Positions 1-46,277 of a stretch of 64,000 nucleotides of DNA are shown here, in pieces. Position numbers and translations under genes: made by a program. The stretch is from the NCBI GenBank assembly GCA_030532825.1, contig JAUNKK010000006.1:6938-70937 (forward strand), written 5' to 3'. Source of the stretch: Propionibacteriaceae bacterium (lineage in GTDB: Bacteria > Actinomycetota > Actinomycetes > Propionibacteriales > Propionibacteriaceae). Under the pieces are notes generated by a model. The model saw only the letters and a program-made list of their open reading frames with translations, did not search any database and had not been told where the DNA came from. Each line of letters begins with the position of its first letter. Positions within the stretch are counted from its first letter, which is position 1.

Positions 1-94
1 GATAGGGAGCCCGTCGGCGCTCCGAGATTGGATGGGAATCCAAATTTTCCTTGATGAAAGAGTGGAGCTCAAAGAGGTCAACTACCATAGTTTA

Positions 95-1396
95 CTATCT
101 CTTTCTCTTTGGAATTTGTGTCAGCAACGTGGACTTTGGAGAACATGCTTGCACGCCCTCAAATCTCATGCACATATTGGGGTCAGGTCCCTGTGGCGAC
201 CCAGTCCAGAAAAGTGCATGCGCGGGACAACCTCCATCGCAGCGGTCGGCAGCAAGACATCCATCTCGACAAGGTCGGTTCCTAAATCCGGAGTATTGCT
301 TCGGGAGGGAGTCGAGTACGTGCTGGAGAGTGACACCCGGGCTCTCCCCTGAGAGGTTTGCTAGTTCATATGCACTCCCCGAAAGGCTTGGACAAAGCCG
401 TACCACTCCCGAAGATGAGATGTAGACCATGGACCTCCCAACGCCGCACATTCCAGGGGTTGGCTGTGAGGGGAATTCCTCGGCCAAGAGTTCAGCCAAC
501 CCTCTTGCTTGAGCCTTGTTAAGAAGAAGATCTCTGGTAGCACGACCCTCTAAGCGCACCGTGTCCACAATAATCGGAAGGTCTTCCGATTTTAGCCAGT
601 CTATCGTTTGACGTACGTGGCCGTAATTGTGGGTCCCCACGACAAGGTTTACTTGAACGGGAATGCTAAGTTCACGCAGCTTTCTAATATTAGAAATCGT
701 CCGCTGAAGACTGCCCTTTTGACCGCGAAAACCGTCATGCACCTTGGCCTGCAGGCTTTCGATACTCGTTGTCACATGAAGGGGCGGGTGCGCAGCAAGA
801 GCAGCGAGATTTCTGGAAGCGAGATGAGTCAGATTAGAGAAGAGAGTAGAAACAAACCCTGCGTTTCCAATCGCAATAATCATCTCATCAAATGAAGGAT
901 GCATAGTCGGCTCACCACCAGTAATATCTATGCGGTACACTCCAAGAGCTCTACCTTCGCGTATTACACGCTTCATCGTAGCCATTGGAAGATCAGTACG
1001 TGCAGCGGGACCGAAAGCACCGAAGCAGTGACGACACCGAAGATCGCAAGTGGAAGTTAACTCAATGAAGAAGCGTTCCACTGTGGTCAACATGGCAAAC
1101 AGATGCGGCGAGGGATTAGCTGTATGGGACTTAGCTAGGGTAATAATCTCAGTTTCTAAGAGCCGTGCGGTGAACTGAGGCATATGGGTCCTCATCAGGG
1201 TACTCACCTTTGCCGCCTCGCTTGATTCGCATAGCCCCTTCAAAAGGGCAGCCTCCGTGTTCGTTAACAAAATACGGCACCGCGTCCTGCGATTCAGAGC
1301 AAACGAGGTTACGTTCTCCCGCCCTTTTACCACAAGTGCGTCTCTCGTGAGGGCAAGAGCTTCAAAGGAGTCCGACTCCATCATCAAACCTCGCAT
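95..1396 (-). CDS. Radical SAM / SPASM-domain enzyme with ~110-aa N-terminal extension (RiPP-type peptide-modifying maturase candidate)
   Basis: CxxxCxxC motif 'CDLRCRHC' at ~aa 118-125 preceded by 'FFIELTSTC'. The C-terminal Cys cluster 'CGVG...CPSLS...CRDGCLAADRCDGGCP' is typical of SPASM/twitch auxiliary Fe-S domains. The ~110-aa N-terminal extension before the radical SAM core is consistent with an RRE-like leader-binding domain. The gene is ~50% GC against a ~68% background. Confidence 0.8.
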   Translation of the reverse strand: MRGLMMESDSFEALALTRDALVVKGRENVTSFALNRRTRCRILLTNTEAALLKGLCESSEAAKVSTLMRTHMPQFTARLLETEIITLAKSHTANPSPHLFAMLTTVERFFIELTSTCDLRCRHCFGAFGPAARTDLPMATMKRVIREGRALGVYRIDITGGEPTMHPSFDEMIIAIGNAGFVSTLFSNLTHLASRNLAALAAHPPLHVTTSIESLQAKVHDGFRGQKGSLQRTISNIRKLRELSIPVQVNLVVGTHNYGHVRQTIDWLKSEDLPIIVDTVRLEGRATRDLLLNKAQARGLAELLAEEFPSQPTPGMCGVGRSMVYISSSGVVRLCPSLSGSAYELANLSGESPGVTLQHVLDSLPKQYSGFRNRPCRDGCLAADRCDGGCPAHALFWTGSPQGPDPNMCMRFEGVQACSPKSTLLTQIPKRKR

Positions 1397-1401
1397 GTTC
1401 C

Positions 1402-1431
1402 ATTTTTACCCGGAGTCCTGTGCAGTGTCAA
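1402..1431 (-). promoter_or_regulatory. Candidate sigma70-like promoter for the radical SAM gene (TTGACA -N17- TAAAAAT), start close to ATG (leaderless)
   Basis: Minus strand reads cTTGACActgcacaggactccgggTAAAAATggaacATG. The -35 is a perfect TTGACA and the -10 is an AT-rich hexamer 17-18 nt downstream. The sequence is AT-rich inside a low-GC islet. Confidence 0.25.
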
Positions 1432-1689
1432 GCGGTTAGCTGAGCTTTATTGGTTTTTACTACTGGGACGTTGGATTCGCTGTGCAGATGGTTGACTTCA
1501 AGGGGCTGCTTTGCAAGGGCGGCGTGTGCTGCACTCGTTTAGGCAGACATCAGGTCAGTCAACGATACCGAGGGCGTCTCTGATCTCATTGAGGTTGACT
1601 TGGCTACACCCCAAGAGACTCATTCACAGAGTCTCAGAATCTGACTTTGACAAGGGGCAATGGCGGTGTCATGGGGTCGTAGCAACGGT

Positions 1690-2800
1690 GCTTGCCAGAA
1701 CAGGAGGAGACAGCTGTTGCGTCGGGTGTTGACGATGGATGGATCGGGCAGCGATTGCTCAGGGGCTGCGGGAGGGGTGTTCGTATCGGCAGATCGCGGG
1801 GCGGATCGGTCGGGATGTTTCGGTGGTGTGGCGGGTATCGCCCGGTCACCGCTGACGTGTCGGCGCAGCGAGCAAGGTCGCGTCTAAAAGGTCCGCACCC
1901 TGAATACTCGATGAGGGGCTACGGCACCGGGTGTTAGCGGACCTGTGCTTGTTCTAGGACCCCCTCGGCAGATCCCCCGGGGAGGCTGCGCGCTGAGACT
2001 TGGGGGGTGAGACCCTGAAACCCTGTAAGGGTTCCCCACCGGCAAGGGGCGTGTGATCTCGCGCGAAGCGCCTCTCATACCAGGATTGCTGCGCGATGGG
2101 CGAAACCCACCCTGCGAGAACACTGGAGTTCATGCTGCGATCGAAACGCACCTACCGCAAGCCCCGCCGGTCGATGGAACAGCGCACAGCCCCTCTTTAG
2201 GGGTTATTCACGTGACCCCCTTCATGGGGTAATGCTGAGCTGGCAAGGGGTTTTGCCCAGCCACAAGGCGTCGTGAATAACGCCCTTTGTCGGTGTCGGT
2301 CAGTGATTGATGACCGCCCGGCCGAGGCCCTCGATCGGCGAGCACCCGGGGGCATGAGGGGAAGGCAGAGTTGATCATCAGCGCCCACGGGCGCAGCACC
2401 GGCGTTCGTATCGATCCTGGCACTCCCGAAAAAGGGCAAAGACTCCACCCGGGGTGTGTGACGCGTTGATCGAACACGTCTCCGCCTCTGCCCGAACTGA
2501 TGAAACACACCCCCAGGTCTTGGCGCCAGGGCACCACAGATGCACCTGCCACGCCGCACTAACGATGGCCACCAAGATGCCTATCTACTTCGCTCACCCG
2601 CACTCCCCGTGGGAACGTGGTAGCAACGAGAACACAGGCGGTCTCATCCGCGAGTACCTTCCCAAAGGCACCGACAACTCCTTCAGCACCAGCCCCACCA
2701 TCGCCGTGATCACCGAAGAACTCGGGCGAACACCCCCAAGCCACCCTCGGCTACCTCACCCCCACGAAACCGTCGAGAAACTACTCGTGGCTCCAACCCC
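1690..2800 (+). mobile_element. IS30-family insertion sequence remnant; transposase reading frame shattered by multiple frameshifts/stops (pseudogene)
   Basis: Fragments in three frames match IS30 transposase hallmarks. N-terminal HTH 'LREGCSYRQIAGRIGRDVSVVWR' and 'YRPVTADVSAQRARSRLK' lie at ~1760-1900. 'DRPAEALDRRAPGG' followed after a shift by 'ELIISAHGRSTGVRIDPG' (RPAE...EGDLI region of the DDE domain) lies at ~2307-2420. C-terminal 'IYFAHPHSPWERGSNENTGGLIREYLPKGTD' and 'ATLGYLTP' lie at ~2575-2790. Confidence 0.6.
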
Positions 2801-2995
2801 AAGGACTTGACCGACCCCCCGACTGGACACCCGCTCTGCCACATGTGGAGCATGAACGAGCACCTTTGCCTAGTATGCCGTGACCTCGTATATGAACGCG
2901 GGCTCCGGCTAGCGAACGTGGTCACCACACCGAGCACACCCCGCCTGAGCGACGAGCCCCGCCGTCCGGCTTCTTCCCGCCACTAGGCTATTTTC

Positions 2996-4171
2996 GTGAC
3001 GCAACAAATCTCTTCGCTAGCCCGCCGCGCCCGTTTGGGCGTGATCCTGCTGTTCTGGTTGAACGGGGCGGCGTGGTCGTCGATCGTCCCGCGGTATCCC
3101 GAGATCAAGGACCGCGTCGGCTTGGACGACCAATGGTGGGGGTTGGTCATCGTCCTGGCACCGATCGGAGGCCTCGCCGCGGGGCTCGTGACCGCGGCCC
3201 TCATCCGGCGTTACTCATCGGCGACGGTGGCGATCATCACGCAGGTGTTCGGGATCGCGATGTTGAGCGTCATCGGTAATGCTCCCGTCGCGACGGTGTT
3301 GGCGCTGGGGGTGTTCCTCATGGCCAGTTGCGACGCGCTGACCGATATCGCCATGAACGCCCACGGGCTGCGGGTGCAGAAGCTGTATGGCCGCCCGATC
3401 CTCAACAGCTTCCACGGCTGGTGGTCAATCGGGGCCGTGTGCGGTGGGCTCCTCGGCTCTGCCGCGAAGCAGGCCGGGGTCACCATCTGGCTGCAATGTC
3501 TCATTGCCACCATCGTTTTCGCCGGCATGTCCATCGCATCCAAGGTGCTGCTCCTGCCGGGCAAGGATCAAGAAGAGGCCGCGACGGCTACCCGTGACCA
3601 CCCACAGCTGCCTACCGCGACCACGCTGCGCTTGGCGGCGCTGGGTCTGCTGGGCGCGTCCGCCATGCTGATGGAGGACACGGGCTCGACATGGGGCGCC
3701 ATCTACCTGGAACGCCAGTTCGACGTCATCCCGTTCCTCACCGGCATGGCCTTCGTGGCGCTGCAGAGCACGCAGTTGGTGGGCCGATTCACGGGCGACG
3801 CCCTGGTGGCGCGGATCGGGGCCCGGTCGGCCGTGGTGCAGGGGGCAGTCATCGCTAGCGTGGGAATGTCGGTATCGCTGCTGTGGCCGAGCCCGGCGGC
3901 CGCCATCGTGGGGTTTGGGTGCGTCGGTTGGGGCATCGCGACGGCGATTCCGTCGGCCATGCACGCCGCCGACGAACTGCCCGGCATGAAACACGGCAAC
4001 GGCCTGATGATCGTCACCTGGATGATGCGGCTCGGATCGTTCGTCGGGCCGCCGCTCATCGGCACGCTGTCCGAGGCAACGGAGCTGCGGCTAGCGCTGT
4101 TCGTGCTGCCTGCTTTCGCCGTCGCGATCCTGGCGCTGAGCCCCGCCCTGCCCTCTCACAAAAGGGGGTAG
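2996..4171 (+). CDS. MFS-type transporter (multi-pass membrane protein)
   Basis: 391 aa with ~11-12 hydrophobic helices, Gly/Ala-rich membrane protein. The N-terminal 'RRARLGVILLFWLNG' is typical of MFS topology. Codon usage matches the GC-rich host background. Confidence 0.65.
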   Translation: MTQQISSLARRARLGVILLFWLNGAAWSSIVPRYPEIKDRVGLDDQWWGLVIVLAPIGGLAAGLVTAALIRRYSSATVAIITQVFGIAMLSVIGNAPVATVLALGVFLMASCDALTDIAMNAHGLRVQKLYGRPILNSFHGWWSIGAVCGGLLGSAAKQAGVTIWLQCLIATIVFAGMSIASKVLLLPGKDQEEAATATRDHPQLPTATTLRLAALGLLGASAMLMEDTGSTWGAIYLERQFDVIPFLTGMAFVALQSTQLVGRFTGDALVARIGARSAVVQGAVIASVGMSVSLLWPSPAAAIVGFGCVGWGIATAIPSAMHAADELPGMKHGNGLMIVTWMMRLGSFVGPPLIGTLSEATELRLALFVLPAFAVAILALSPALPSHKRG

Positions 4172-4302
4172 CCCCGCACCAAGGCGACGCCAGACAAGCC
4201 CACGACGCGCTGGCCGGTTGGGAACCCACGAACCTCGACTTTAGGAAAGGCATGCCTTACCATACTCGGGTTACGTGAGCCATCACTCGATACGGAGCCC
4301 CC

Positions 4303-5340
4303 ATGATTTCCAGAAGAACTTTCGCGATGCTGTTTGGCGCGGCCGCCGCCACCGCGGGCGTCGCCGCCTGCTCCGGCAACAACAGTGAGACGTCGTCAAG
4401 CTCCAGCGGCAGCGGCGCGAGCGACGCCTTCCCCGTCACCATCCAGCATGTCTACGGCGAAACCGTCATCGAGAAGAAGCCCGAGCGCATAGCCACCGTG
4501 AACTGGGCCAACCAGGAGGTTCCCTTGGCGTTGGGCGTGGTGCCCGTCGGCATGCAGAAGGTGACCTGGGGCGACGAAGACGGCGATGGCATCCTCCCCT
4601 GGGTGCAGGACAAGCTCGCCGAGCTGGGCGGCGAGCCCCCGGTGCTGTTCGACGAAACCGACGGCATCCCCTTCGAGGCCGTGAGCGACACCAACCCCGA
4701 CGTGATCCTGGCCTCGTACTCCGGCATCACGCAGGCGGACTACGACACCCTCACCAAGATCGCCCCCACCATCGCCTACCCCGGGGTCCCGTGGGGAACC
4801 ACGATGAACGACATGATCCGCCTCAACTCCCAGGCCATGGGCCTGGCCTCCGAGGGCGACGCCCTGATCACCAAGCTGAAAGGCGACGTGACGGCGGCCG
4901 CGGACAAGTATCCGCAGCTCAAGGGCAAGAAGGTGATGTTCACGGCCCTCATGAACGCCGACGACGACCTCTCGAAGTTCGGTTTCTACACCACCAAGGA
5001 CTCGCGGGCCAGCTTCCTGCTGGAGGCCGGAATGGCCGCACCCAAAGTGGTGGAGGAGGAGTCCGCAAAGACCAACGAGTTCTGGTACGAGCTCTCCTCG
5101 GAAAACCCCGAGCTGTTCGACGATGTCGACATCCTGCTGGCCTACGGGCCGGCGGACCCAGCCCCGATGCTGGCCTCCCTCAAAGCCCATCCCCTGCTGT
5201 CCCGCATCCCGGCCATCGCCGAGGATCGCGTCGTGTTCGTCGGCCAGGGCTACCTGGGAGTCGTCGCCAACCCGTCACCGCTGTCCATCGGCTGGGGAAT
5301 TGACCAGTACTTCGCGAAACTGGCCGAAGGCATCAAGTGA
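4303..5340 (+). CDS. Iron-siderophore ABC transporter substrate-binding lipoprotein (FecB/FepB class)
   Basis: N-terminal lipoprotein signal 'AAATAGVAACSG'. Periplasmic binding protein fold (class III), first gene of a binding protein-permease-permease-ATPase operon. Confidence 0.85.
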   Translation: MISRRTFAMLFGAAAATAGVAACSGNNSETSSSSSGSGASDAFPVTIQHVYGETVIEKKPERIATVNWANQEVPLALGVVPVGMQKVTWGDEDGDGILPWVQDKLAELGGEPPVLFDETDGIPFEAVSDTNPDVILASYSGITQADYDTLTKIAPTIAYPGVPWGTTMNDMIRLNSQAMGLASEGDALITKLKGDVTAAADKYPQLKGKKVMFTALMNADDDLSKFGFYTTKDSRASFLLEAGMAAPKVVEEESAKTNEFWYELSSENPELFDDVDILLAYGPADPAPMLASLKAHPLLSRIPAIAEDRVVFVGQGYLGVVANPSPLSIGWGIDQYFAKLAEGIK

Positions 5341-6380
5341 CCTCCGCCCTCACCACTGCCCCGCCAGGGCTCGGTGAGATCCAGCGATCCGCGGGACGGC
5401 GGCTGCTCGGGCTCGTGATCATGATTGCGATCTTGGCGCTGGCGGTCGTCGCGTCGGCGGCCTTCGGTGTGCGCTCGATCTCCCTCACCGACGTCCTTGC
5501 CGGGCTAGCCGGAGGCACCGAGACCGCCGGTCAGGCAGCCGTCGCGGCCCGCCTGCCCCGCACCGTCATGGGGTTCCTCGTCGGCGCAGCCCTGGCCATG
5601 GCAGGCACGACGATGCAGGCCGTTACCCGCAACCCCCTGGCCGACCCCGGCATCCTCGGCGTTCTTTCGGGGGCGTCGCTGGCGGTGGTGATCGGCCTGT
5701 CCTTCTTCGGCCTGTCGAGCCCCGTCACGACGGTGTTCGTGGCGGTCATGGGGTCGGCCACGGCGGCGCTGTTCGTCTACGGCGTCGGATCGCTGGGACG
5801 GGGCGGCGCCACCCCACTGAAGCTGGCGCTCGCGGGGGCCGCGACCTCGGCGGCCGCGTCGTCCCTGGTGTCAGCCATCCTGCTGCCGCGGGCGCAGGTG
5901 ATGGACAGCTTCCGCAGCTGGCAGATCGGCGGAACTGGTGGCGCCACATGGGGCAAGGTGGTGCTCGTGGCCCCGTTCCTGGTGGTGGGCGCGCTGCTGT
6001 GCCTGGCGCTGGCGCGTGGCCTGAACGCCCTGGCCTTGGGCGACGACGTCGCCACGGGGCTGGGCGAGAACGTGCTGCGCACCCGGCTGCTGGCCTCCCT
6101 CGGTGCGGTGATCCTGTGCGGGGTGGCGACCGCGGCCTGTGGTCCCATCGGCTTCGTCGGCCTCATCGTGCCCCACATCTGCCGGCTGCTGGTGGGCACC
6201 GATCACCGGTGGCTGCTGTGGTTCGCCGCCGTCGCGGGATCCTGCCTGCTGCTGATCTCCGACACTGTCGGCCGCGTCATCGTGCCTAACTCGGAGATCG
6301 ACGTCGGCATCATCACCCCGTTCATCGGGGCGCCTTTTTTCATCTGGATCGTGCGACGCCAGAAAGTGCGTGAACTATGA
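5337..6380 (+). CDS. FecCD-family iron-chelate ABC transporter permease
   Basis: 347 aa polytopic protein with Gly-rich FecCD signatures ('GxxLGxxSGA', 'IITPFIGAPFF'). Start overlaps the upstream stop by 4 nt (coupling). Confidence 0.85.
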   Translation: MTSALTTAPPGLGEIQRSAGRRLLGLVIMIAILALAVVASAAFGVRSISLTDVLAGLAGGTETAGQAAVAARLPRTVMGFLVGAALAMAGTTMQAVTRNPLADPGILGVLSGASLAVVIGLSFFGLSSPVTTVFVAVMGSATAALFVYGVGSLGRGGATPLKLALAGAATSAAASSLVSAILLPRAQVMDSFRSWQIGGTGGATWGKVVLVAPFLVVGALLCLALARGLNALALGDDVATGLGENVLRTRLLASLGAVILCGVATAACGPIGFVGLIVPHICRLLVGTDHRWLLWFAAVAGSCLLLISDTVGRVIVPNSEIDVGIITPFIGAPFFIWIVRRQKVREL

Positions 6381-7417
6381 CCACCGTTACATCCGCGGAT
6401 GTCCCGACGCTGCGCGCGGCCCGGCGCCACCGCACCCGCTCCCAAACCGGCGTGGTGGCGGTGCTGGCTGTGCTGGTGGTCGGGCTGTGGGTTACATCCC
6501 TGATGGTCGGCGACACCTTCTACGGCCCTGAGCAGGTGTGGCGGGTCATCATCGGTGAGCGCGTGCCGGGCGCGAGCTTCACCGTCGGTGAGCTGCGGCT
6601 ACCGCGTGCCACGCTGGCGTTGCTGGCGGGCCTGGCCTTCGGGTCGGCGGGCGTGACGTTCCAGACGCTGCTCCGCAACCAGTTGGCGTCCCCCGACATC
6701 ATCGGCATCTCCGCCGGGGCCAGCGTCGCCGGAGTGATCGGCATCGTGGTGTTGCGGCTCAGCGACACCGCCGTGTCCTTTCTGGCTCTGGCCGCCGCCA
6801 TCCTCACGGCCCTGCTGATTTACGCCCTCAGCTACAAGGGCGGGTTCGCGGGCACGCGACTGATCCTGATCGGCATCGGCGTCTCCTCAATGCTCACCTC
6901 CGTGGTCACCTACACGCTGTCACTGGCCTCCGAGTGGGACATGCAGACGGCGACCCGCTGGCTCACGGGATCCCTGAACAACGCCGAGTGGCCGCGAGTC
7001 ATCCCCCTGGCTGTGACCTGCGCCGTCGTGCTGCCGCTGATGTGGCTGCGCTCCAGTTCGCTGGCGACGCTGCGTTTCGGCGATGACACCGCCTCCGGGC
7101 TCGGAGTGCGGGTGATGTCGGTGCGAGTGTGGACCATCGTCGCGGCCGTCACCCTCATCGCGGTGGCGACGGCGTCCTGCGGCCCTGTCGCCTTCGTTGC
7201 CTTCATGGCCGGGCCGATCGCGGCCCGCATCTCCCGCTCCGCCGCGTCGCTGACGGTGCCGTCGGCTCTCGTCGGCGCGGTGCTGGTGCTGGGCTCCGAC
7301 CTGATCGGCCAGTTCGCCTTCGGCACCCGCTACCCCGTCGGCGTCATCACGGGCGCGCTCGGTGCCCCGTTCCTCGTCTATCTCCTGATCCGCTCCAACC
7401 GGCAGCGCCGGAACTAG
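6377..7417 (+). CDS. FecCD-family iron-chelate ABC transporter permease (second subunit)
   Basis: Paralogous to the upstream permease ('DIIGISAGASVAGVIGI', 'GVITGALGAPFLVYLL'). Overlapping start. Confidence 0.85.
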   Translation: MTTVTSADVPTLRAARRHRTRSQTGVVAVLAVLVVGLWVTSLMVGDTFYGPEQVWRVIIGERVPGASFTVGELRLPRATLALLAGLAFGSAGVTFQTLLRNQLASPDIIGISAGASVAGVIGIVVLRLSDTAVSFLALAAAILTALLIYALSYKGGFAGTRLILIGIGVSSMLTSVVTYTLSLASEWDMQTATRWLTGSLNNAEWPRVIPLAVTCAVVLPLMWLRSSSLATLRFGDDTASGLGVRVMSVRVWTIVAAVTLIAVATASCGPVAFVAFMAGPIAARISRSAASLTVPSALVGAVLVLGSDLIGQFAFGTRYPVGVITGALGAPFLVYLLIRSNRQRRN

Positions 7418-7424
7418 GAATCCC

Positions 7425-8237
7425 ATGACCACCAACCGTTCCCTCACCGCCACCGACCTCACCCTGGGGTACGGCGAGCGCACCATCGTCGACAAGCTGG
7501 ACCTGACCGTCGAGCCCGGTGCGATCACATCCATCGTCGGGGCCAACGGCTGCGGCAAGTCGACGCTGCTGCGGTCGCTGGCCCGGCTCCTGAAGCCGAA
7601 GTCGGGTCAGGTGATCCTCGACGGCCGCTCCCTGCACGAACAGCCCACCAAAGAGATCGCGAAGGTGCTGGGGCTGTTGCCACAATCGCCAATCGCTCCG
7701 GAAGGCATCGTCGTCGCCGACCTGGTCGGACGGGGCCGCCACCCCCATCAGGGCATGATGGGCCGCTGGTCGCCGCGCGACTACGAGGTGGTGGCCGGGG
7801 CCCTGGCTGCCACCAACACCACCGAACTGGCCTCGCGCCCCGTCGACGAATTGTCGGGTGGGCAGCGGCAGCGGGTGTGGATCGCCATGGCGCTGGCCCA
7901 GGAAACCGACATCCTGCTGCTGGACGAGCCCACCACGTTCCTGGACGTCGCCAACCAGTTGGAGGTCCTGGATCTACTGACCGACCTCAACGCCCGTAAC
8001 GGCACCACCGTCGTGATGGTGCTGCACGACCTAGGGTTGGCGGCCCGTTACTCCGACCGGCTCGTCGCGATGCGTAAGGGCGCGATCCTGTCCCAAGGCA
8101 AACCCGATGAGGTGGTTACCCCCGAGACGGTGCACGAGGTGTTCGGCATCGAGTCGCGGGTGGTGCCGGACCCGGTGTCCGGTGCGCCGCTGGTCATGCC
8201 GATCGGGCGGCACCACGTGAAGCAGACGGATGGGTGA
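7425..8237 (+). CDS. Iron-siderophore ABC transporter ATP-binding protein (FepC/FecE-like)
   Basis: Walker A 'GANGCGKST', ABC signature 'LSGGQRQRV', Walker B 'ILLLDEPT', H-loop 'VLHDL'. Confidence 0.9.
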   Translation: MTTNRSLTATDLTLGYGERTIVDKLDLTVEPGAITSIVGANGCGKSTLLRSLARLLKPKSGQVILDGRSLHEQPTKEIAKVLGLLPQSPIAPEGIVVADLVGRGRHPHQGMMGRWSPRDYEVVAGALAATNTTELASRPVDELSGGQRQRVWIAMALAQETDILLLDEPTTFLDVANQLEVLDLLTDLNARNGTTVVMVLHDLGLAARYSDRLVAMRKGAILSQGKPDEVVTPETVHEVFGIESRVVPDPVSGAPLVMPIGRHHVKQTDG

Positions 8238-9167: not shown

Positions 9168-10486
9168 CGAGGCGAGGTGAGGTCCTCGGTGCCCTTCTCG
9201 AAGGACCCGGGACCGATCCGGTGCGCGACGCCGGCGAACGCGGCTGCCAGCAACAGCCACAGGCCCGTCAGCACCGGGAGCGTGGCGGCGTCAATGCCGG
9301 TGACGGGCAGCGTCAATGCCGCCACCACACCCGCCAGCACGAAGGCACCGTTGAAGGCCATGTCGTAGAACGTGAAGACGCGGCCTTTGAACGCCTCGTC
9401 GATGCCGGCCTGCACCATCGTGTCGGCCAGGATCTTGTAGCCCTGCGCCCCCAACCCGACGAACACCGACGCGACCAGCAGCACCTCCCGGCCACCCAGC
9501 ATCATCGTCGCCGTCGCCAGTGCCGCGATGCCGAGCATGACGGCGACCGAGACCCGCAGCCCCACGAACCGCGCCACCGGCGGCACGACCGCGCTGGCGG
9601 AGATGAAGCCGACGCCAGTCAGGGTCCCCCACAAGGTGAGGTCGGCTAGGGCATCAATGGGGTCGATGTGAATCAGGTTTCTAAAACCCAGGATGATGGC
9701 GACGGAGAACAGCCCGAACAGCAGCCGCATCGCCGCCAGTCCCGTGATGGCCAGCATCGGGACGGGGCGTACGGCGAGGTGACGGCCGGCCGCGGCGAGG
9801 TCCCGCCACACCTCCGAGGCGCGGGTGCGGGAGGCTCCTTCGCTGGGGCCGAGGGCGTCGCGCCGAAACCCTAACCCGAGCGCCACGGACCCGGTGAACA
9901 GCACCGCCGCGACCCAGAACACCACCGCGTTGGCGGGATCGTCGCCGAGGACAGGGGCCAGCCCAAGCCGACCCGCTATCCCCAGCACCGCCCCGATGAC
10001 CACACCCATCGGGCCCACCATCGGCAGGATGGCCGACGCGGTCAGGTACTCATCGGGCTCGACGACGTGCTGCAGGCCGGCCGTCAGTCCCGCCAGCATG
10101 AACCGGTTGATGCTCATCGCCACCAGCAGCGCCGCGAACAGCACAACCTCCCAGTTGCCGTGGGTGGCGCTGACGAAGATCAACACCCCGATGAGCGCAC
10201 ACAGCGAAGCCCGGATGATGTCGGAGACCACCGCCACCTGCCGCCGGGACCATACATCCAGCAGCGGGGAGACAAACGGACCCAGCACGGTAAAGGGCAG
10301 GAACGTGATGGCCAGGATGGCCGCGATCGACCAGGCATCCGGCTGGCTCATCGGCGAGAACAGCAGGTAGGAGGCCATGCCCACCTGCAGCGTCCCGTCG
10401 GCCGCCTGGGACAGGACGCGAAGGCTCAGCAGCCGCCGAAACCCGGGCTGCCGCAGAAGCCGCCGCAGCGCCGATCCGACCGCCAT
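9164..10486 (-). CDS. MFS transporter
   Basis: 440 aa with 12 predicted TM helices. N-terminal 'LRRLLRQPGFRRLLSLRVLSQ' is typical of actinobacterial MFS efflux proteins. Confidence 0.75.
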   Translation of the reverse strand: MAVGSALRRLLRQPGFRRLLSLRVLSQAADGTLQVGMASYLLFSPMSQPDAWSIAAILAITFLPFTVLGPFVSPLLDVWSRRQVAVVSDIIRASLCALIGVLIFVSATHGNWEVVLFAALLVAMSINRFMLAGLTAGLQHVVEPDEYLTASAILPMVGPMGVVIGAVLGIAGRLGLAPVLGDDPANAVVFWVAAVLFTGSVALGLGFRRDALGPSEGASRTRASEVWRDLAAAGRHLAVRPVPMLAITGLAAMRLLFGLFSVAIILGFRNLIHIDPIDALADLTLWGTLTGVGFISASAVVPPVARFVGLRVSVAVMLGIAALATATMMLGGREVLLVASVFVGLGAQGYKILADTMVQAGIDEAFKGRVFTFYDMAFNGAFVLAGVVAALTLPVTGIDAATLPVLTGLWLLLAAAFAGVAHRIGPGSFEKGTEDLTSPR

Positions 10487-10487
10487 G

Positions 10488-11669
10488 TCAGGTCAGATCC
10501 CCATGCAGCTTGTGGACCTTCGCCAGCACCAGTTCCACCCCGGAGGCGTCCAGGTAGTGGGCCACCAGCTCTGGGTCCATGTCCTTCAGCTTCGCCTCCC
10601 GGGCGACGATCTCATCGTAGAGGGCGGTACGTTCCTCATCGGTGCCGTGATATTCGGTGTGCAGGTAGGCGTGGGCCTTACGGTCGAGCACCCGGACGGC
10701 GGAGGCGACGGCGCCCTTGGGACTGAGCAGCGACGCGACGATCGTGACGGTCAGCAGGCCGATAACCACCAGGAGCGCCTGCACATCCCCGAATTCGTAG
10801 ACGGGCACGGGCTGGCCGTCGTTGATGAAACTCAGGTTGTTCTCGTGCAGGGCGTGGAGGATCAGTTTGATGCCGATGAACGCCAAGATCGCGGCCAAAC
10901 CAAATTTGAGGTAGATGAGGCGGTCAAGCAGGTCGTCGATGAGGAAGTACAGCTGACGCAGCCCCATCAAGGAAAATGCCGTCGCCGTGAACACCAGGTA
11001 TGGCTCCTGGGTGACGCCGTAGACAGCGGGGACGGAATCCACGGCGAACATCACATCGGTTCCGCCGATGGCCACCATCACCAGCAGCATGGGGGTTAAA
11101 ACCAACCTGCCGTTCTCCATGGTGAACAGCCGGTCGCCGTCGTAGTGGTCGGTGGTGTGCAGATATTTCTTGGCGAGGCGGATGATGAAATTGTCGGCCT
11201 CGTCGGACTCGCCCTCCTCAGGGGCGAGGAGCTTTCCGGCGGTGATGATGAGCACGAGCCCGAAGATGTAGAACACCCAACTCCAAGCCTCAATCATCGC
11301 GGCACCGGCGGCGATGAGCACCGACCGCGTCAGCAGGGCGAACGCGATGCCGAACAGCAACACCTTCTGCTGATCCTCACGGGGCACGGCAAAGGACCCG
11401 ATGATCACCAGAAACACAAACAGGTTATCGACGCTGAGAGCCTTCTCGACGAGCCAGCCGTTGAAGTATTGGAACCCCATCTCGTGGCCACCAAAAATCA
11501 GCACGGCGACGCCAAACAGCACGGCTAGGCCAACGTAGATGGCCGACCAGGTAGCGGCTTCCCGGATGGTGGGGATGTGGGCCTTGCGGACATGAACGAA
11601 GAAGTCGAAGGCAAGCAGACCGGCGATGAGGACGATGGTCAGAGCCCAGACCCAAAGGGGGACGGACAA
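10488..11669 (-). CDS. TerC-family integral membrane protein
   Basis: 393 aa. The TerC signature has the repeated motif 'SVDNLFVF'/'AVDSV' ('LSVDNLFVFLVIIGSF', 'MFAVDSVPAVYG'). TTG start with AAGGAG RBS 9 nt upstream. Confidence 0.8.
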   Translation of the reverse strand: MSVPLWVWALTIVLIAGLLAFDFFVHVRKAHIPTIREAATWSAIYVGLAVLFGVAVLIFGGHEMGFQYFNGWLVEKALSVDNLFVFLVIIGSFAVPREDQQKVLLFGIAFALLTRSVLIAAGAAMIEAWSWVFYIFGLVLIITAGKLLAPEEGESDEADNFIIRLAKKYLHTTDHYDGDRLFTMENGRLVLTPMLLVMVAIGGTDVMFAVDSVPAVYGVTQEPYLVFTATAFSLMGLRQLYFLIDDLLDRLIYLKFGLAAILAFIGIKLILHALHENNLSFINDGQPVPVYEFGDVQALLVVIGLLTVTIVASLLSPKGAVASAVRVLDRKAHAYLHTEYHGTDEERTALYDEIVAREAKLKDMDPELVAHYLDASGVELVLAKVHKLHGDLT

Positions 11670-11895
11670 CCGGGTTCACTCCTTGGATGAGAACGTCGTG
11701 GGCTGTGACGCGGGATTGAGACATCGCAGCACAGTTCTCAGGGTACCTGGCTACGGTGCTCGCACCCAATTACTCAACTGCTCGGGTGGGCTTCCCAGCC
11801 GTTCCTCCGGCTGTGCTGGGCGCTGCCGGTACGCTCATAGGTGCGAGGGCGCCGCCAGTTCCTGCACCCTCACACGCTGAAGGGAAGGGATTGCC

Positions 11896-13821
11896 GTGAC
11901 TACTCGGGCCAGGTGGGGCAAGAAGCTACAAGCCGGGCTGGCGTGCACGCTAGCCGCGGTGCTTCTGACGGCCGGATGCGTCCCTGGCGGGTCGCAACGC
12001 GACCCGGGCACCCCACCCGACGGCGTCCCGGCAGCCGACGATGTTGTCGCGCAGGTCGTCGCGGGTCTCCCGAAGTCCGACCTGACGGCCGCGCCCCTGA
12101 CCACCTCGCCCGCCGACGCCACCGCCGAACTGAACGTGATCTTCGCCGGTATGGACGGCATCGTCCCCGCCGTGGAGGTGACGGGCATCACCTACGAGGA
12201 CGACGGTAAGACCGCCGCCGCGCAGCTGAAATACACCTACCCCGTCACCCAAGGCATGTGGGAATACACCGCCACCCTCCCGCTGGAGAACACCGACGGG
12301 AACTGGGCGGCCGTGTGGTCGCCGACGGTGGTACACCCACAGTTGACCGCCGAGACGCGGCTCCGGCACACCCGCAAGCAACCCAAGCGCGCACCCATCA
12401 ACGACAAGGACGGTCTGGCCCTCGTCGAAGAACGCACCCTCTACCAAGTCGGCATCGATAAATCCCTCGTCGAGGAAGCGAACTGGCCCGCTTCCGCCGC
12501 CAAGCTGGCGGAGATGCTGAGCATCGACGCAGCCGCCTACACCGAGAAGGTCCTGGCGGGCGGGCCGCAGCAGTTCGTCATCGCCGCGACGATGGCGCAG
12601 GACCAGATTCCGCCCACCGTCACCGATATCCCGGGCGGGGCGGTGCACGAGACGGCGGGCATGGTGGCGCCCAGCGACACCTTCGCCCTCAGTCTGCTGG
12701 GCAAGGTCGGCAACCCCACACCGGAGCAGATCGAGAAGGCGGAGGGCGCCATCAGCGCCTCCGACATGGTGGGGGTCAGCGGCCTACAAGCCCGCTACGA
12801 CGAGCAACTGCGGGGGGCGCCGCAGGTACGCGTCGACCTCGTCGCCCGCTCCGGGGCCACCGCCGAGACCGTGTCGCTGTACGATCAGCAGGAGAGCGTT
12901 GGGGCCCCCATCCAGCTGTCCCTGGACCGGGCGTTGCAGGAGAAGGCCGAGGCGTTGTTGGCGCAGCAGATCCCCGACGACCAGACGGCCGCCATCGTCG
13001 TCCTCGACATCAACGACGGCGGGGTGCTGGCGGCCGCCAACTCGAAAGGCGCTGGCGAGTATCCGTACGCCACCTATGGCAGCTTCGCACCCGGCTCCAC
13101 ATTCAAGGTGATTTCGTCGCTGGCGATGATCCGCGCCGACGGGCTGACGGCCGACTCGACGGTGGAATGCCCCATATCGGTGGAAGTCGGCGGGCACACC
13201 GTCAAGAACTACGCGCGCTACCCGGAGGTGCACACGGGCAGTATCCCGTTCAAGGACGCTCTGGCCTACTCCTGCAACACCACCTTCGCGGCCGCAGCCG
13301 AGCAGATCACGCCCGACGCGCTGAAAGCAGCGGCAGCCAGCCTCGGCGTTGGCACCGACTATGATGCCGGTTTCACCTCCAACTTCGGCAAGGTGGAGCC
13401 CAACGTCAACGACCCGATCGACCGGGCCATCAGCATGATCGGGCAGGGCGGCATCGAGATGTCGCCGCTGGGCATGGCCGCCGTCGCCGCCAGCGTCGGC
13501 TCCGGCAAAACCACCATCCCGTGGCTAGTCAAGGACCACCAGGCCACCTCCACCGCGACGGCGCTGACCCCCGAGGAGGCGACTAGCCTGCAGGCCATGA
13601 TGCGCTCGGGCGTGGACTACGGCACCGGCAAGGGCCTGCAAGGGGTGATGACGGGCGCCAAGTCCGGCACCGCCGAGTTCGGGGCCGACGCGGCCAACAC
13701 CGCTGACGCCCACGCCTGGATGATCGCGTGGAACGACAAGTACGCCGTCGCCGTGTTCCTGCAGCAGGGATCGTCGGGGTCCACGTCGGCCGCGCCGCTT
13801 ATCACGGCGCTCCTCAGCTGA
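11896..13821 (+). CDS. Penicillin-binding protein (class B transpeptidase-type), lipoprotein-anchored
   Basis: Lipobox 'LLTAGC'. Transpeptidase motifs SxxK ('GSTFKV'), SxN-like, and KTG-like ('KSGTAEF'). GTG start with GGAAGGGA RBS. Confidence 0.8.
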   Translation: MTTRARWGKKLQAGLACTLAAVLLTAGCVPGGSQRDPGTPPDGVPAADDVVAQVVAGLPKSDLTAAPLTTSPADATAELNVIFAGMDGIVPAVEVTGITYEDDGKTAAAQLKYTYPVTQGMWEYTATLPLENTDGNWAAVWSPTVVHPQLTAETRLRHTRKQPKRAPINDKDGLALVEERTLYQVGIDKSLVEEANWPASAAKLAEMLSIDAAAYTEKVLAGGPQQFVIAATMAQDQIPPTVTDIPGGAVHETAGMVAPSDTFALSLLGKVGNPTPEQIEKAEGAISASDMVGVSGLQARYDEQLRGAPQVRVDLVARSGATAETVSLYDQQESVGAPIQLSLDRALQEKAEALLAQQIPDDQTAAIVVLDINDGGVLAAANSKGAGEYPYATYGSFAPGSTFKVISSLAMIRADGLTADSTVECPISVEVGGHTVKNYARYPEVHTGSIPFKDALAYSCNTTFAAAAEQITPDALKAAAASLGVGTDYDAGFTSNFGKVEPNVNDPIDRAISMIGQGGIEMSPLGMAAVAASVGSGKTTIPWLVKDHQATSTATALTPEEATSLQAMMRSGVDYGTGKGLQGVMTGAKSGTAEFGADAANTADAHAWMIAWNDKYAVAVFLQQGSSGSTSAAPLITALLS

Positions 13822-13823
13822 GT

Positions 13824-14750
13824 TCAGGCCAGCTGGAACACCCGGGCGACGATGGCCGCCGCGATCAACACCACGATGAGGCCCACCAGCGGCCACTGCC
13901 AGCGCTGACGCTGCTCCCGGGGCAGGCCGATGATCGCCGCGGTCACGGCGAGCCCCCCGAGCAGGCCGCCCAGGTGTCCCTGCCAGGAAATCGACGCCGC
14001 CCCGATGACGGTGATCACGACGTTCAGGCCTAGCCACACCAGGATGGCCCGCACGTCGCCGCGGTGCTTCAGGACCAGCACGAGCACGGCGCCCATCATC
14101 CCGAAGATCGCACCTGAGGCACCCAGGGTCGTGACATGCGTGTCGGTGAACCACAGCACCACCGCCGAGCCCGCCAGCGCCGAGACCAGGTACACCGTCA
14201 GGAATCGGACCCGGCCCAGCGCCTGTTCCAACTGCGGCCCCAGGATGAACAGGGCCGCCATGTTAAACGCCAAATGGAGCAGCTCAACGTGCACGAAAGC
14301 GTTGGTGAGGACCTGCCACCACGCCCCGGAGGCCACCCCGTCAATCCACGTTCTGTTTCCCACGCACTCCGCGGCCGCGACGGGCACCAGGTAGGCGTCG
14401 TTCACCAGGCACCAGCCCTCGGTGCGGATCGCCAGCCACCGCACGAGTGGGCTCTGCAGACCGCCCGTGAAGAAGACCGCGGCCCACACCACCAGGTTGA
14501 TGCCAATCAGCACCTGCGACGTCAAAGCCGGGTTGCTGCTGCGGACTCCACCGTAGGGCAGCTGCCCCTGCCGGGTCTGACGTCGTCCCTCCGCAACGCA
14601 ACTGGGGCACTGGAAACCGACGGAGCCCGCCACCATGCAGCGCGGGCAGATGGGACGGCGGCAGCGCTGGCAGACAATGCCGGTGGGTTCCTCGGGGTGG
14701 CGGTAGCAGACGCGGTCTTGCATGGCGGCAAGGCTACCCGGAACAGCCAT
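13824..14750 (-). CDS. Rhomboid-family intramembrane serine protease with N-terminal zinc-ribbon
   Basis: N-terminal 'CQRCRRPICPRCMV...FQCPSC' has four Cys pairs. Rhomboid catalytic 'GASGAIFGMMGA' (GxSG) and a downstream His lie in TM helices. Confidence 0.8.
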   Translation of the reverse strand: MAVPGSLAAMQDRVCYRHPEEPTGIVCQRCRRPICPRCMVAGSVGFQCPSCVAEGRRQTRQGQLPYGGVRSSNPALTSQVLIGINLVVWAAVFFTGGLQSPLVRWLAIRTEGWCLVNDAYLVPVAAAECVGNRTWIDGVASGAWWQVLTNAFVHVELLHLAFNMAALFILGPQLEQALGRVRFLTVYLVSALAGSAVVLWFTDTHVTTLGASGAIFGMMGAVLVLVLKHRGDVRAILVWLGLNVVITVIGAASISWQGHLGGLLGGLAVTAAIIGLPREQRQRWQWPLVGLIVVLIAAAIVARVFQLA

Positions 14751-14755: not shown

Positions 14756-15970
14756 GTGCCTCCCATGGGAGCAGGGCATTCGCACGGGAACGTTGACCTC
14801 GACCAGGTAGCCGTCGGGGATGCGGCGGCCAAGATCCTGAAGATCTTCCTGGCCGTCGTTGCCGCCATCACCATCGCGGGGCTGATCCTGCTGTGGCCCT
14901 CCAGTTCGCAACTGAATCGGGCCACGGCAAAACAGGCCGACGCACCCGGCGTGTCCTACGAGCACGGCACGATCACCGAGGTCACCGAGGGCTGCCCCAC
15001 CATGCAAGGGGGGCAGGCCAAGTGCTACACCGTGGCAGTCACCGTCAACACCGGCGAGGACGCCGGCCAGAGCGTCACCATCGAGTTGATGGGGCCGCAC
15101 GCCTACTCGGGGCTGCGCCCCGGCGACGACGTGGAGATGGGGAGAATTTCCACTCCCGATGGGCCACTGTGGTCGTTCTCAGCCGCCAATCGGCTACCGG
15201 CGCTGATCGGCATGGGGGTGCTGTTCGTCGCCGTGGTGCTGGCTGTGGCCCGCTGGAAGGGGCTGTTTGCGCTGCTGGGGCTGGGCTTCTCCGGTTTCGT
15301 GCTGGTCGGTTTCATGCTGCCCGCGCTCATCACAGGCAAACCGGGCATGGCCGTGGCGCTCGTCGGAGGGACAGCGATCCTGTTCGTGGTGCTGTATGTG
15401 GCGCACGGGGTGTCGCTGCGGACCTCGACGGCGCTGGCGGGGACGCTGCTGGGGCTGGCGGTGACCACGCTTCTGGGCACGATCTCGGTGGAGCTGGCCC
15501 GGCTGTCTGGTTTCGCCGACGAGAACGAGTACGACCTGGCCAGCGTGCTGCCTGGTTTGGACCTGAGGCAGCTGCTCATGGTGGGGATCATCGTCGGTGG
15601 GCTCGGCGTCCTGAACGACGTCACGATCACCCAGAGTTCGGCGGTGTGGGAGCTGCGGGCGGCGGCGCCGGCGATGTCGCGCCGGGAGCTGTTCGCGGCG
15701 GGCATGCGGATCGGCCGCGACCACATCGCCTCCACCATCTACACCATCGTCTTCGCCTATGCGGGCGGCTCTCTAGCGGTCCTGCTGCTGCTGTTCTTCA
15801 CCAACCGCGAAGTCATTGACCTGCTGAACGTGGAGATGTTCGCAGGCGAGATCGTGCGCACCCTTGGCAGCGCCATTGGTCTGGTGCTGAGCGTCCCGAT
15901 CACGACGGGGATCGCAGCCCTGGTGGTGGCCCCGGCCCGGCCTGTGGAGGCTGAATCGTCGGCTGCGTGA
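14756..15970 (+). CDS. YibE/F-family membrane protein
   Basis: 404 aa with one N-terminal TM, a ~100-aa extracytoplasmic domain, then ~8 TM helices. This matches the YibE/F family fold. Confidence 0.55.
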   Translation: MPPMGAGHSHGNVDLDQVAVGDAAAKILKIFLAVVAAITIAGLILLWPSSSQLNRATAKQADAPGVSYEHGTITEVTEGCPTMQGGQAKCYTVAVTVNTGEDAGQSVTIELMGPHAYSGLRPGDDVEMGRISTPDGPLWSFSAANRLPALIGMGVLFVAVVLAVARWKGLFALLGLGFSGFVLVGFMLPALITGKPGMAVALVGGTAILFVVLYVAHGVSLRTSTALAGTLLGLAVTTLLGTISVELARLSGFADENEYDLASVLPGLDLRQLLMVGIIVGGLGVLNDVTITQSSAVWELRAAAPAMSRRELFAAGMRIGRDHIASTIYTIVFAYAGGSLAVLLLLFFTNREVIDLLNVEMFAGEIVRTLGSAIGLVLSVPITTGIAALVVAPARPVEAESSAA

Positions 15971-16053
15971 TGTCGCTGGGCGACATGTCCGGGCAAACCG
16001 GTAGCTTGTGCCAAACCTGACCGTGGCTCAAGAAATCACCCGAAAGGCTTCTG

Positions 16054-16680
16054 ATGTCCGAAACCCAACCCGTTGATACAGCCGAAGGCAGTTCCTTCCT
16101 GACCCGCCTAGCCCAGACCATCACCCGGCTCGACCGCTTTGCCATCTTCATGCTGCGCCTCGGCGTGGCCGTCGTGTTCCTGTGGATCGGCGGCCTGAAG
16201 TGGTTCAAGTACGAGGCCGACGGCATCGTGCCGTTCATCGCGAACTCACCGGTTATGAAATGGATGATCGGCGACCCCGCGAACTACAAGTCCCACATGA
16301 ACGCGGAGGGCGTGCTCATCGACGCGAACCGCGCTTGGCACGAGGCCAACGGCACCTACCCCGTGTCGATCTTCATCGGCGTCACCATCTGCCTGATCGG
16401 CGCGCTCATCCTGGGCCACTACCTTCACCCGACGCTCGGCATGCTGGGCGCGCTGGGTGTCGTGTGCTTCTCGTTCGTGACGTTGTCGTTCCTCATCACC
16501 ACGCCCGAGGTGTGGGTTTCGGCTCCCAAGGAAGGCATCGCCGACGCCGACATCGGTTTCCCCTACCTGAGCGGCCGCGGACGGCTCGTCGTGAAGGACT
16601 GCATTCAGTTGGGCGCCGGTTTCGTGCTGTTGGTGGACTCGGCCCGCGTCTTCTTGAAACGCAAGCAGCTGGCTGCCTGA
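16054..16680 (+). CDS. DUF417/YkgB-like inner-membrane protein
   Basis: 208 aa with four TM helices. 'FAIFMLRLGVAVVFLWIGGLKWFKYEADGI' resembles the YkgB/DUF417 N-terminus. Confidence 0.5.
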   Translation: MSETQPVDTAEGSSFLTRLAQTITRLDRFAIFMLRLGVAVVFLWIGGLKWFKYEADGIVPFIANSPVMKWMIGDPANYKSHMNAEGVLIDANRAWHEANGTYPVSIFIGVTICLIGALILGHYLHPTLGMLGALGVVCFSFVTLSFLITTPEVWVSAPKEGIADADIGFPYLSGRGRLVVKDCIQLGAGFVLLVDSARVFLKRKQLAA

Positions 16681-42759: not shown

Positions 42760-42775
42760 CGTTTCACGTGAAACG
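42760..42775. promoter_or_regulatory. parS: parS #3
   Basis: Identical 16-mer CGTTTCACGTGAAACG (ggcgtttcacgtgaaacgcc). Confidence 0.85.
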
Positions 42776-43080
42776 CCTCACCACGAAGACTGCTTCGGAT
42801 CATGAAAGCCGCCGCAGCATCACGCGTATAACTCTGGTTCTAGGCAACCAAAGCTCACATCCTGCACTCTTCGCCCAGCGAGATACCGGAGCTCGCAAGA
42901 GTCCTGGAGTTGCGCCACTTGCAAAGTGCATTCACGTCCAGCCTTGCTTGCCACGGTCTCGGGGCAGGGGCTAGGCGATGGGAAAGACTCTCGCGGCCGT
43001 ACCTGTCCGCCTTCTTCATCGGCTTCGTTCGGACGATGGCAGCGTCGAGTAGCTCAGCCGCGTGCCACGCCTCCCGGAGT

Positions 43081-43135
43081 TCTCTCTAAATCTATTTATC
43101 GATATCTCTTTTTATAGTTATATATGGAAGGCGAG
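43081..43135. repeat. AT-rich islet A (tctctctaaatctaTTTATCGATAtctctttttatagttatatatgg)
   Basis: ~55-bp AT-rich patch in ~62% GC surroundings, containing the TATCGATA palindrome. Confidence 0.45.
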
Positions 43136-43715
43136 AAGGCGCTACCTGGCAGCGGTCGATAGGTTGGTTCGCCACCATGCAGTTCTTCCCCTCAGCAATC
43201 GGAGGAGCCGCTCAGCGCGGCAGCGAGAGCGGATCCTTGGACTCCCTCCCCGAACCACCCATAGTTGTTGGAGCTGTCCGAATCAGCCACCACGCCCCGC
43301 ACTCACCACGAGCCTCTGAACGGCTTCCGAGTCGCTTGCTCGGATGGCAGATTCGCCGATGGGCACCTTCCCGTCCCGGCGGAGGAGGTGGAGATCATTC
43401 GCGAGCGAGCAACTGCGTAGCGAGATCGGCCAGGAGATCGGCGAGCAGCTGGAAAAGCACCAATACTCCCGAGCTCGCCCTCCATACCGAACGAGGTCGA
43501 ATAGTACCCTCCTGACGTATCGGCTCGGCGCCGCGGTACGCGCCTTGGGGTGCTTGCTTCGTTAGAGCAGAAGTGCGCGGACATATGCGAGGCCGAGACT
43601 TCGCCACCGGCGAAAGATGGATTAGTGCGCCGACCGACGGCCCCGCACCATTCAATTGGCTTCGCACGCTGAACACGCATCATGTGCCTAGGCATAGCCG
43701 AGTCCCACGGTGCAG

Positions 43716-46261: not shown

Positions 46262-46277
46262 CGTTTCACGTGAAACG
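46262..46277. promoter_or_regulatory. parS: parS #6
   Basis: Identical 16-mer (ggcgtttcacgtgaaacgcc). Confidence 0.85.

Follow-up and report, generated by a model that had tools for sequence, protein, structure and literature searches.

A radical SAM gene at the edge of a Propionibacteriaceae contig segment as the probable first gene of an eight-gene RiPP operon on a low-GC island

A gene for a radical S-adenosylmethionine (rSAM) enzyme that stands at the very end of a sequenced segment raises the question of what its product acts upon and which genes accompany it. Such a gene, here termed rSAM-A, occupies the left edge of a stretch of 64,000 nucleotides from a Propionibacteriaceae bacterium (assembly GCA_030532825.1, contig JAUNKK010000006.1; the whole stretch is called the window below), where it lies on the minus strand in a low-GC islet beside a decayed IS30-family insertion element. 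A sequence-only reading had described it as a horizontally acquired maturase of the kind that modifies peptides ribosomally synthesized and then post-translationally modified (RiPPs), had found neither a precursor peptide nor a transporter in the window, and had proposed that the sequence past the left edge be inspected for small peptide, ATP-binding cassette (ABC) and further rSAM genes. An identical public contig resolves what would otherwise be annotated, at a contig edge, as a lone 'radical SAM protein': rSAM-A is very likely the first gene of an eight-gene RiPP operon on a horizontally acquired low-GC island, and the probable product of the cluster is a small modified peptide whose His-Cys-Ser core is invariant.

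The public contig is L001, an 8822-bp Logan contig (SRR24915807) that carries P0001, a protein with 100% identity to rSAM-A. Positions 1–2112 of L001 correspond to window positions 2112–1 with 100% identity over 2112 bp (position x of L001 being position 2113-x of the window), and because this overlap is identical, L001 adds 6710 bp past the left window edge. The precursor and transporter genes missing from the window both lie just past that edge, and the proposed inspection yielded a 58-aa Cys-containing peptide, an ABC-2 transporter, and two further rSAM enzymes. The downstream side of rSAM-A (minus strand below position 95), previously regarded as cut off, does continue as an operon past the edge, with its second gene already beginning within the window (Table 1). 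On the window minus strand, the gene order is rSAM-A, rSAM-B, U, rSAM-C, precursor, hairpin, ATPase, permease, and permease, which amounts to eight genes in ~6.8 kb, and all eight open reading frames (ORFs) are intact. The rSAM-B gene begins 7 nt past the rSAM-A stop codon and encodes 383 aa with Pfam Radical_SAM and SPASM domains (SPASM E 2e-10), the third gene encodes the 250-aa Cys/His protein U, which has no family match, and the fourth encodes rSAM-C, which has 304 aa and the rSAM core only. The precursor ORF, with a strong ribosome-binding site, encodes the 58-aa sequence MSVDVKFESGFLEKLQEELEEHNLEISDRDPEVTHLTLSPERLKVFMSACHCSLAQPQ, ending in LKVFMSACHCSLAQPQ. A perfect 14-bp GC-rich hairpin (L001 5028–5058, ~2.9 kb past the left window edge) separates the precursor gene from the ABC ATPase gene, whose product is DrrA-like (E 7e-55) and matches the lantibiotic-protection ATPase model TIGR03740 (E 4e-43). 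Of the two permease genes that follow, one matches ABC2_membrane and the other has no family match.

Six further metagenomic lineages carry related clusters: four have the full set of eight genes, and in two that are distant, part of it remains; one additional contig, L099, ends directly after rSAM-A and was left out as uninformative. The precursor C-termini across the seven lineages are LKVFMSACHCSLAQPQ, LKVFMGSCHCSLAQPE, LKVFMGTCHCSLMAPM, LKVFMGTCHCSLSTPGV, LKVFMGTCHCSLNGEAPW, EQAMLGTCHCSADRNN, and SVAMGVSHCSN. His-Cys-Ser is invariant in all seven, with a Met 4–5 residues upstream of the His, and the core can be written as [ST]-[CS]-H-C-S or, with the Met included, as M-x2-3-[ST]-[CS]-H-C-S, with 1–2 Cys per core. 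The precursors are 39–63 aa long and their leaders are divergent. The ribosome-binding site of the peptide gene, GAAAGGAGGTG, is shared by the two closest lineages, the others having sites of GGAGG type, and a hairpin (-30 to -43 kcal/mol) that differs in sequence lies 3' of the peptide gene in all five full eight-gene lineages (including L008, L095, L096, and L098). The ratio of non-synonymous to synonymous substitution (dN/dS) between the two closest lineages is ~0.07–0.15 for the four computable genes including the peptide gene, with dS saturated, and purifying selection thus appears to act on the cluster genes between lineages. Every related cluster is lower in GC than its own flanks. The conservation of the core, the dN/dS values, the hairpin, and the low GC relative to the flanks show that the small ORF is a real precursor-type gene and the cluster a mobile unit. 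The hosts include high-GC actinobacterial-type lineages, a low-GC host with a 26–28% GC cluster, and a metagenome-assembled genome (MAG) from the Alphaproteobacteria; no mobility genes were found adjoining the related clusters. That the cluster recurs as a low-GC island in hosts unrelated to one another suggests a function that is both selectable and transferable, for example that of an antimicrobial or competition factor.

The 433-aa product of rSAM-A matches Pfam Radical_SAM (PF04055) at residues 111–268 (E 4e-20, 73 bits vs. a gathering threshold of 29.5), following ~105 aa that are N-terminal to the radical SAM core. Its cluster motif CxxxCxxC consists of C117, C121, and C124, which are invariant in 76 relatives; the placement of this motif after an N-terminal extension had been recognized earlier, with the cysteines given at ~118–125. 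In the C-terminal part, seven Cys (C317, C335, C376, C380, C386, C390, and C409) show little or no variation among the same 76 relatives, and their pattern, CX12GX4C ... CX3CX5CX3C ... C (C317-X12-G-X4-C335 ... C376-X3-C380-X5-C386-X3-C390 ... C409), fits the SPASM seven-Cys motif CX9-15GX4C ... CX2CX5CX3C ... C with one X3 spacing where the motif has X2. The extended Cys-rich SPASM C-terminus proposed from the letters alone is borne out by these seven residues, the alignment of rSAM-A to the MftC hidden Markov model (HMM) runs through residue 409, and Pfam SPASM (PF13186) matches 48 of the 76 relatives (best E 6.7e-14), with rSAM-A itself giving no match at E<=1.

The N-terminal domain of rSAM-A can be assigned, by fold and family homology, to the PqqD-like RiPP recognition elements (RREs), with leader binding as its predicted function. 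In the AlphaFold2 (AF2) model (predicted local distance difference test, pLDDT, 66.5; predicted template modelling score, pTM, 0.63), strands at residues 14–16, 20–24, 31–35, and 41–44 are followed by helices at 46–56, 61–71, and 73–81, a topology over residues 14–81 that is compatible with a PqqD/RRE-type winged helix. Foldseek comparison of the full-length model with the PDB placed the streptide maturase SuiB (5v1q/5v1s/5v1t) at the top (E 8e-18, TM 0.60, 441–463 aligned columns), followed by SkfB, BlsE, and PqqE. SuiB consists of an N-terminal RRE, an rSAM barrel, and a SPASM domain. A profile of 37 homologous N-domains searched against the PDB matched PqqD (5sxy, E 0.003), TfuB1 (E 0.012), a lasso PqqD-family chaperone (9x90, E 0.016), PqqCD, and TbiB1 (E 0.083), with five of the top seven matches being PqqD-type and the remaining two MarR/SlyA winged helices. 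Similarly, Pfam PqqD (PF05402) was matched individually by 10 of the 37 N-domains (best E 8e-6), and no other family recurred. The assignment, which agrees with the N-terminal RRE suggested by the sequence-only reading, rests on fold and family-level homology because rSAM-A alone falls short of Pfam PqqD.

Close relatives of rSAM-A are few. A homologue search over 5.8 billion sequences returned two close homologues only, including P0001, and an HMMER search of 1.84 billion representatives returned 74 proteins at E<=1e-30, all of them metagenomic and with generic names, the nearest ones being ~415 aa long and extending over the N-domain. No close relative was found in 185,579 GTDB species representatives, and a scan of JGI metagenomes returned the ERZ772764 contig alone, which was already in hand. 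The 433-aa form of rSAM-A was not on record in an exact-protein look-up because the public gene call begins at M6; a start at the first ATG is supported by P0002, a 62%-identical homologue that likewise begins MR(T)G. Two distant word-based matches, P0005 and P0006, were dropped, their gene contexts being unrelated.

No Shine-Dalgarno sequence was found ahead of rSAM-A or of its homologue P0002, and one is present ahead of the rSAM-A relatives of L094, L096, and L098, which confines the leaderless geometry to the two closest lineages. The E. coli-like promoter noted earlier is present as TTGACA-18-AAAAAT; it is the single such site in 3 kb and, because shuffled sequences yield 1.1 sites per 3 kb, is not significant by itself. 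A leaderless rSAM-A mRNA is plausible, judged from sequence alone.

The foreign composition of the island is observed directly. GC is 0.48–0.57 across window positions 1–1650 vs. 0.65 for the whole window, and GC at third codon positions (GC3) is 0.50 in rSAM-A and 0.50–0.63 in the island genes vs. 0.81–0.90 in six host genes. The islet at the window edge had been correctly noted, as had the low GC of the gene, with the host genome now placed at 65% rather than at the 68% first given. The island is taken to be ~7.3 kb long because GC is back at host level near L001 7800. Together with the IS30 remnant at its border, these values support the earlier proposal that the island is foreign and was acquired horizontally by its Propionibacteriaceae host, whose DnaA (window 53179–54717) shares 82% identity with the DnaA of an uncultured Propionibacteriaceae MAG and 75% with that of Tessaracoccus. 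The borders are formed by the decayed IS30 on the window side and by a 217-aa ORF and a HAD hydrolase gene on the other. No convincing flanking direct repeats or att-like sites were found around the island, no tRNA genes at its borders, and no integrase genes around it, and an Rfam scan of the window and L001 gave no match. The 217-aa ORF (L001 7711–8364, past the left window edge), which separates the HAD hydrolase gene from the island, has an intermediate GC (0.61) and no family match.

The element beside the island belongs to the IS30 family and is no longer intact, as the sequence-only reading had stated. An HTH_38 fragment lies at 1736–1852 (E 5e-9, 36 bits vs. a cutoff of 27), window ~2550–2675, a conserved C-terminal piece of the transposase, matches annotated IS30 transposases by blastn, and the transposase reading at ~1736–2810 on the plus strand is split across three frames with stop codons, the last stop being at 2810. 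A weak 12-nt inverted repeat (1668–1679/2812–2823) is the sole terminal repeat left on the element. L001 breaks off inside this remnant (window 2112), and several sister-lineage contigs (L008–L012) end 400–700 bp past the last permease gene; these contig ends suggest that, in those samples, the cluster is bordered by repeated sequence.

Table 1. Features at the left edge of the window, and the gene content of related clusters (A, B, and C, rSAM-A, rSAM-B, and rSAM-C)
Feature	Position or contig	Strand	Basis or remark
rSAM-A: 433-aa radical SAM maturase, RRE + rSAM core + SPASM-like	95..1396	-	ORF, Pfam Radical_SAM
RRE (PqqD-like) domain of rSAM-A, aa ~12-90	1127..1363	-	AF2 topology, N-domain profile, PF05402 in homologues
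Radical SAM core of rSAM-A, aa 111-268	593..1066	-	CxxxCxxC aa 117-124 = nt 1025-1048
SPASM-type auxiliary-cluster region of rSAM-A, aa 317-409, seven conserved Cys	170..448	-	conserved Cys, MftC HMM alignment
rSAM-B start, first 29 codons, cut by the window edge	1..88	-	translation MVVDLFELHSFIKENLDSHPISERRRAPY = L001 2025 onward
Sigma-70-like promoter candidate TTGACA-18-AAAAAT	1402..1431	-	ends 5 nt before the ATG at 1396
In-window part of the ~7.3-kb low-GC island	1..1650	.	GC profile; continues ~5.7 kb past position 1 (L001 ~460-7800)
Decayed IS30-family element	1668..2823	+	HTH_38, blastn, broken frame; outer limits tentative
Related cluster: A, B, U, C, peptide, ATPase, permease, permease	L008-L013, L095, L096, L098
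Related cluster: A, U, C, fused ABC exporter, upstream peptide	L094		rSAM-A 24% identical; cluster 26% GC
Related cluster: A, 65-aa ORF, B, U, C, peptide	L097		90%-identity cluster member from an Alphaproteobacteria MAG

Protein U has no counterpart in the curated families. Seven U homologues share an invariant HPC-x9-CH motif, most of them also have a PRRIxIxxxGxVxPY...LG segment, and one homologue (P0013, 52% identity) is found on 12 contigs. By hhalign, U and rSAM-B align over only ~55 residues (probability 67%, E 5e-5), where the PRRIxIxxxGxVxPY...LG segment of U pairs with the first beta-hairpin of the rSAM-B SPASM domain; the corresponding probability with rSAM-A is 15%. U has neither the CxxxCxxC motif nor the later SPASM cysteines, and from these alignments, it may perhaps be a degenerate SPASM- or twitch-like accessory protein.

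Comparison with characterized maturases places the cluster near several known systems and within none of them. SuiB is the best fold match to the rSAM-A model and is also found by phmmer against the PDB (E 7.6e-10), but the two proteins are only 18% identical, and the bridging region between barrel and SPASM is much shorter in rSAM-A. SuiB forms a Lys-Trp C–C bond on a KxxxW peptide, whereas the peptide core here has no Lys or Trp. The sactipeptide and ranthipeptide synthases (SkfB, AlbA, StsB, PapB) resemble the present enzymes in their rSAM/SPASM architecture, in some cases with an N-terminal RRE, in their Cys-containing cores, and in the ABC transporters that are often alongside; SkfB is the best PDB sequence match of rSAM-A (E 5.6e-14), and the StsB HMM alignment starts at residue 31 of rSAM-A and so takes in the N-domain. 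The cluster differs from these systems in having three rSAM genes and U, with 1–2 Cys in a fixed C-H-C-S context. None of the sactipeptide and ranthipeptide HMMs (AlbA, SkfB, StsB, PapB, SCIFF maturase) exceeds its cutoff (55–73 bits vs. 300–850); for example, rSAM-A scores 61.7 bits against a cutoff of 300 for SkfB, 60.9 against 850 for AlbA, and 68.5 against 625 for StsB, and rSAM-B scores 72.9 against 340 for PapB. The ATPase and two ABC-2 permeases downstream of the precursor gene resemble the LanFEG-type ABC-2 immunity transporters and DrrAB, but with matches under the curated cutoffs and one permease without a family match; their role in export or immunity is a prediction. In NCBIfam, Pfam, and PADLOC, no curated family covers the cluster, and the peptide, U, and one permease match no family. 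A full-text literature search gave no description of a CHCS-type rSAM peptide, with papers outside the searched library remaining possible. The cluster is a complete, mobile three-rSAM system of RiPP type, a kind that is known, and its peptide family lies outside the curated libraries.

From these comparisons, a route to the product can be proposed. The RRE of rSAM-A would bind the acidic leader, probably via a conserved LKVFMG stretch, and the rSAM enzymes would modify the invariant C-terminal core by means of 5'-deoxyadenosyl radicals together with auxiliary Fe-S clusters. Because other SPASM enzymes act on cores that contain Cys, the likeliest modification, by analogy, is a thioether cross-link derived from Cys, with the thiol of the invariant Cys being joined to a nearby carbon in a sactionine- or ranthionine-type thioether; a further cross-link or a different radical modification might come from rSAM-B and rSAM-C. 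Behind the precursor gene, the hairpin could raise precursor mRNA relative to transporter mRNA, and the ABC-2 transporter, which is LanFEG-like, would carry the product out of the cell and/or shield its producer.

Several observations weigh against this interpretation of the cluster. No protease or leader peptidase gene was found in the cluster, and no evidence of cluster expression in this host was found. At the level of the single protein, rSAM-A matches neither the Pfam SPASM nor the Pfam PqqD model, its AF2 model is of only moderate confidence (pLDDT ~66, low in the SPASM region), and none of the curated RiPP-maturase HMMs reaches its cutoff with it, the best being MftC (90 bits vs. 265) and StsB (68 vs. 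625). U has no assigned function, and an AF2 model of it built from two sequences was unusable (pLDDT 31). In addition, whether a cluster has rSAM-B does not follow from its count of core cysteines: L094 has two core Cys and no rSAM-B, and L097 has one core Cys with rSAM-B present. A model of one enzyme per Cys is not supported because these two lineages break the correspondence.

A bolder proposal goes beyond the operon assignment and is offered tentatively, being itself more doubtful than not. The 'CHCS peptides' could form a new RiPP class in which three rSAM enzymes and the Cys/His accessory protein U turn His-Cys-Ser, with the nearby Met and second Cys, into a modification unlike sactionine or ranthionine thioethers (a His-Cys cross-link, a heterocycle, or a metal-binding warhead), and in which the eight-gene cassette moves between phyla as a self-contained low-GC island without a recognizable integrase.

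The best-surviving of the rival explanations, itself improbable, is that the cluster makes a peptide-derived redox cofactor like pyrroloquinoline quinone (PQQ) or mycofactocin, in which C-terminal residues would be cross-linked and the peptide trimmed to an intracellular small molecule. The top NCBIfam matches of rSAM-A and rSAM-B are MftC and PqqE, which are SPASM enzymes acting on C-terminal residues of a small peptide, the core lies at the extreme C-terminus of the precursor as in MftA and PqqA, and the missing leader peptidase would also suit such a pathway. However, the MftC and PqqE scores are 3–5 times under the curated cutoffs (for rSAM-A, 90 bits vs. 265 and 78 vs. 381), the locus has no homologues of MftB/D/E/F or PqqB/C/D/F, and the RRE, a separate protein in those pathways (MftB, PqqD), is fused in rSAM-A. 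The ABC-2 exporter belongs to the conserved cluster, and the distribution is sporadic and island-like across phyla, with no close relative in the GTDB representatives searched.

Slightly less credible is a silent relic, that is, an intact but unexpressed foreign cassette stranded beside a dead IS30. The island GC3 is far from that of the host, the adjoining IS30 is decayed, and the promoter evidence consists of one consensus match at chance frequency; against this, all eight ORFs are intact, purifying selection appears to act between lineages, and the ribosome-binding site and hairpin are conserved. This explanation is compatible with an RiPP operon because it concerns expression and not identity.

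A still fainter chance is given to an HXS-related system of anti-phage defence. The HXS defence effector, which bears His-x-Ser motifs, is matured by paired rSAM enzymes together with a small accessory protein (PMC13128918). The invariant H-C-S of the present peptide is such a His-x-Ser motif, the cluster likewise combines several rSAM enzymes with an accessory protein of no known family and has island-like mobility, an rSAM-matured defence effector has thus already been described (PMC13128918), and rSAM-C weakly matches HxsC (E 2e-10, 39.8 bits). That match is generic, however (cutoff 268, rank 25), no HxsB or HxsD matches were found, and U and the peptide match no model. The substrate here is a short leader-core peptide of 39–63 aa that has a single motif and lacks a peptidoglycan-binding domain, whereas such a domain is present in HxsA along with five repeats, and HXS as described has no ABC-2 transporter (PMC13128918), a component that better suits export or immunity. 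PADLOC gave only partial generic matches of the cluster to viperin/rSAM and ATPase core models.

The notion that rSAM-A is a housekeeping maturase of the anaerobic sulfatase-maturating enzyme (anSME) or QhpD type, acting on a sulfatase or quinohemoprotein, can draw on anSME structures among the fold matches of rSAM-A from rank 13 onward and on a weak match of rSAM-B to the anSME HMM TIGR03942 (77.9 bits, short of the cutoff of 349), but that model is absent from the top 25 NCBIfam matches of rSAM-A, rSAM-A has an RRE domain, the operon itself contains a conserved small peptide gene, and no sulfatase or amine-dehydrogenase gene occurs in the 8.8-kb context or in any related locus, so that the gene context effectively refutes it. 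The choice of a RiPP-modifying over a housekeeping enzyme made by the sequence-only reading is in keeping with this context, which includes a precursor gene and no sulfatase, quinohemoprotein, PQQ, or mycofactocin partner genes.

Both antibiotics and new enzyme chemistry are found productively in rSAM clusters that make RiPPs. The present cluster has a short, defined core common to seven lineages and an unusual set of three rSAM enzymes with an uncharacterized HPC...CH protein, and it is directly testable by heterologous expression because the complete gene set and the precursor sequence are in hand.

The related loci also show individual additions. In L097, the peptide gene is followed (9449–13852) by genes for an EF-G-like GTPase, a phosphoenolpyruvate-utilizing (PPDK_N) enzyme, and a GNAT acetyltransferase, which replace the ABC transporter; speculatively, these might be resistance genes that hint at the target. 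The 65-aa ORF between rSAM-A and rSAM-B of the same contig (6263–6460) resembles a stand-alone RRE by eye and has no significant Pfam match. In L096, a YcaO-domain gene on the opposite strand (15761–16644, minus), ~1.5 kb downstream of the cluster, may be part of a second, adjacent RiPP locus.

Elsewhere in the window, positions 40200–49800 (~9.5 kb) contain no ORF of >170 aa, no Pfam match for the longest ORFs, no repeats, and no Rfam match. This segment directly adjoins rsmG, jag, yidC, and dnaA, beside which parA and parB are usually located in Actinobacteria, and it may be a decayed or unusual region.

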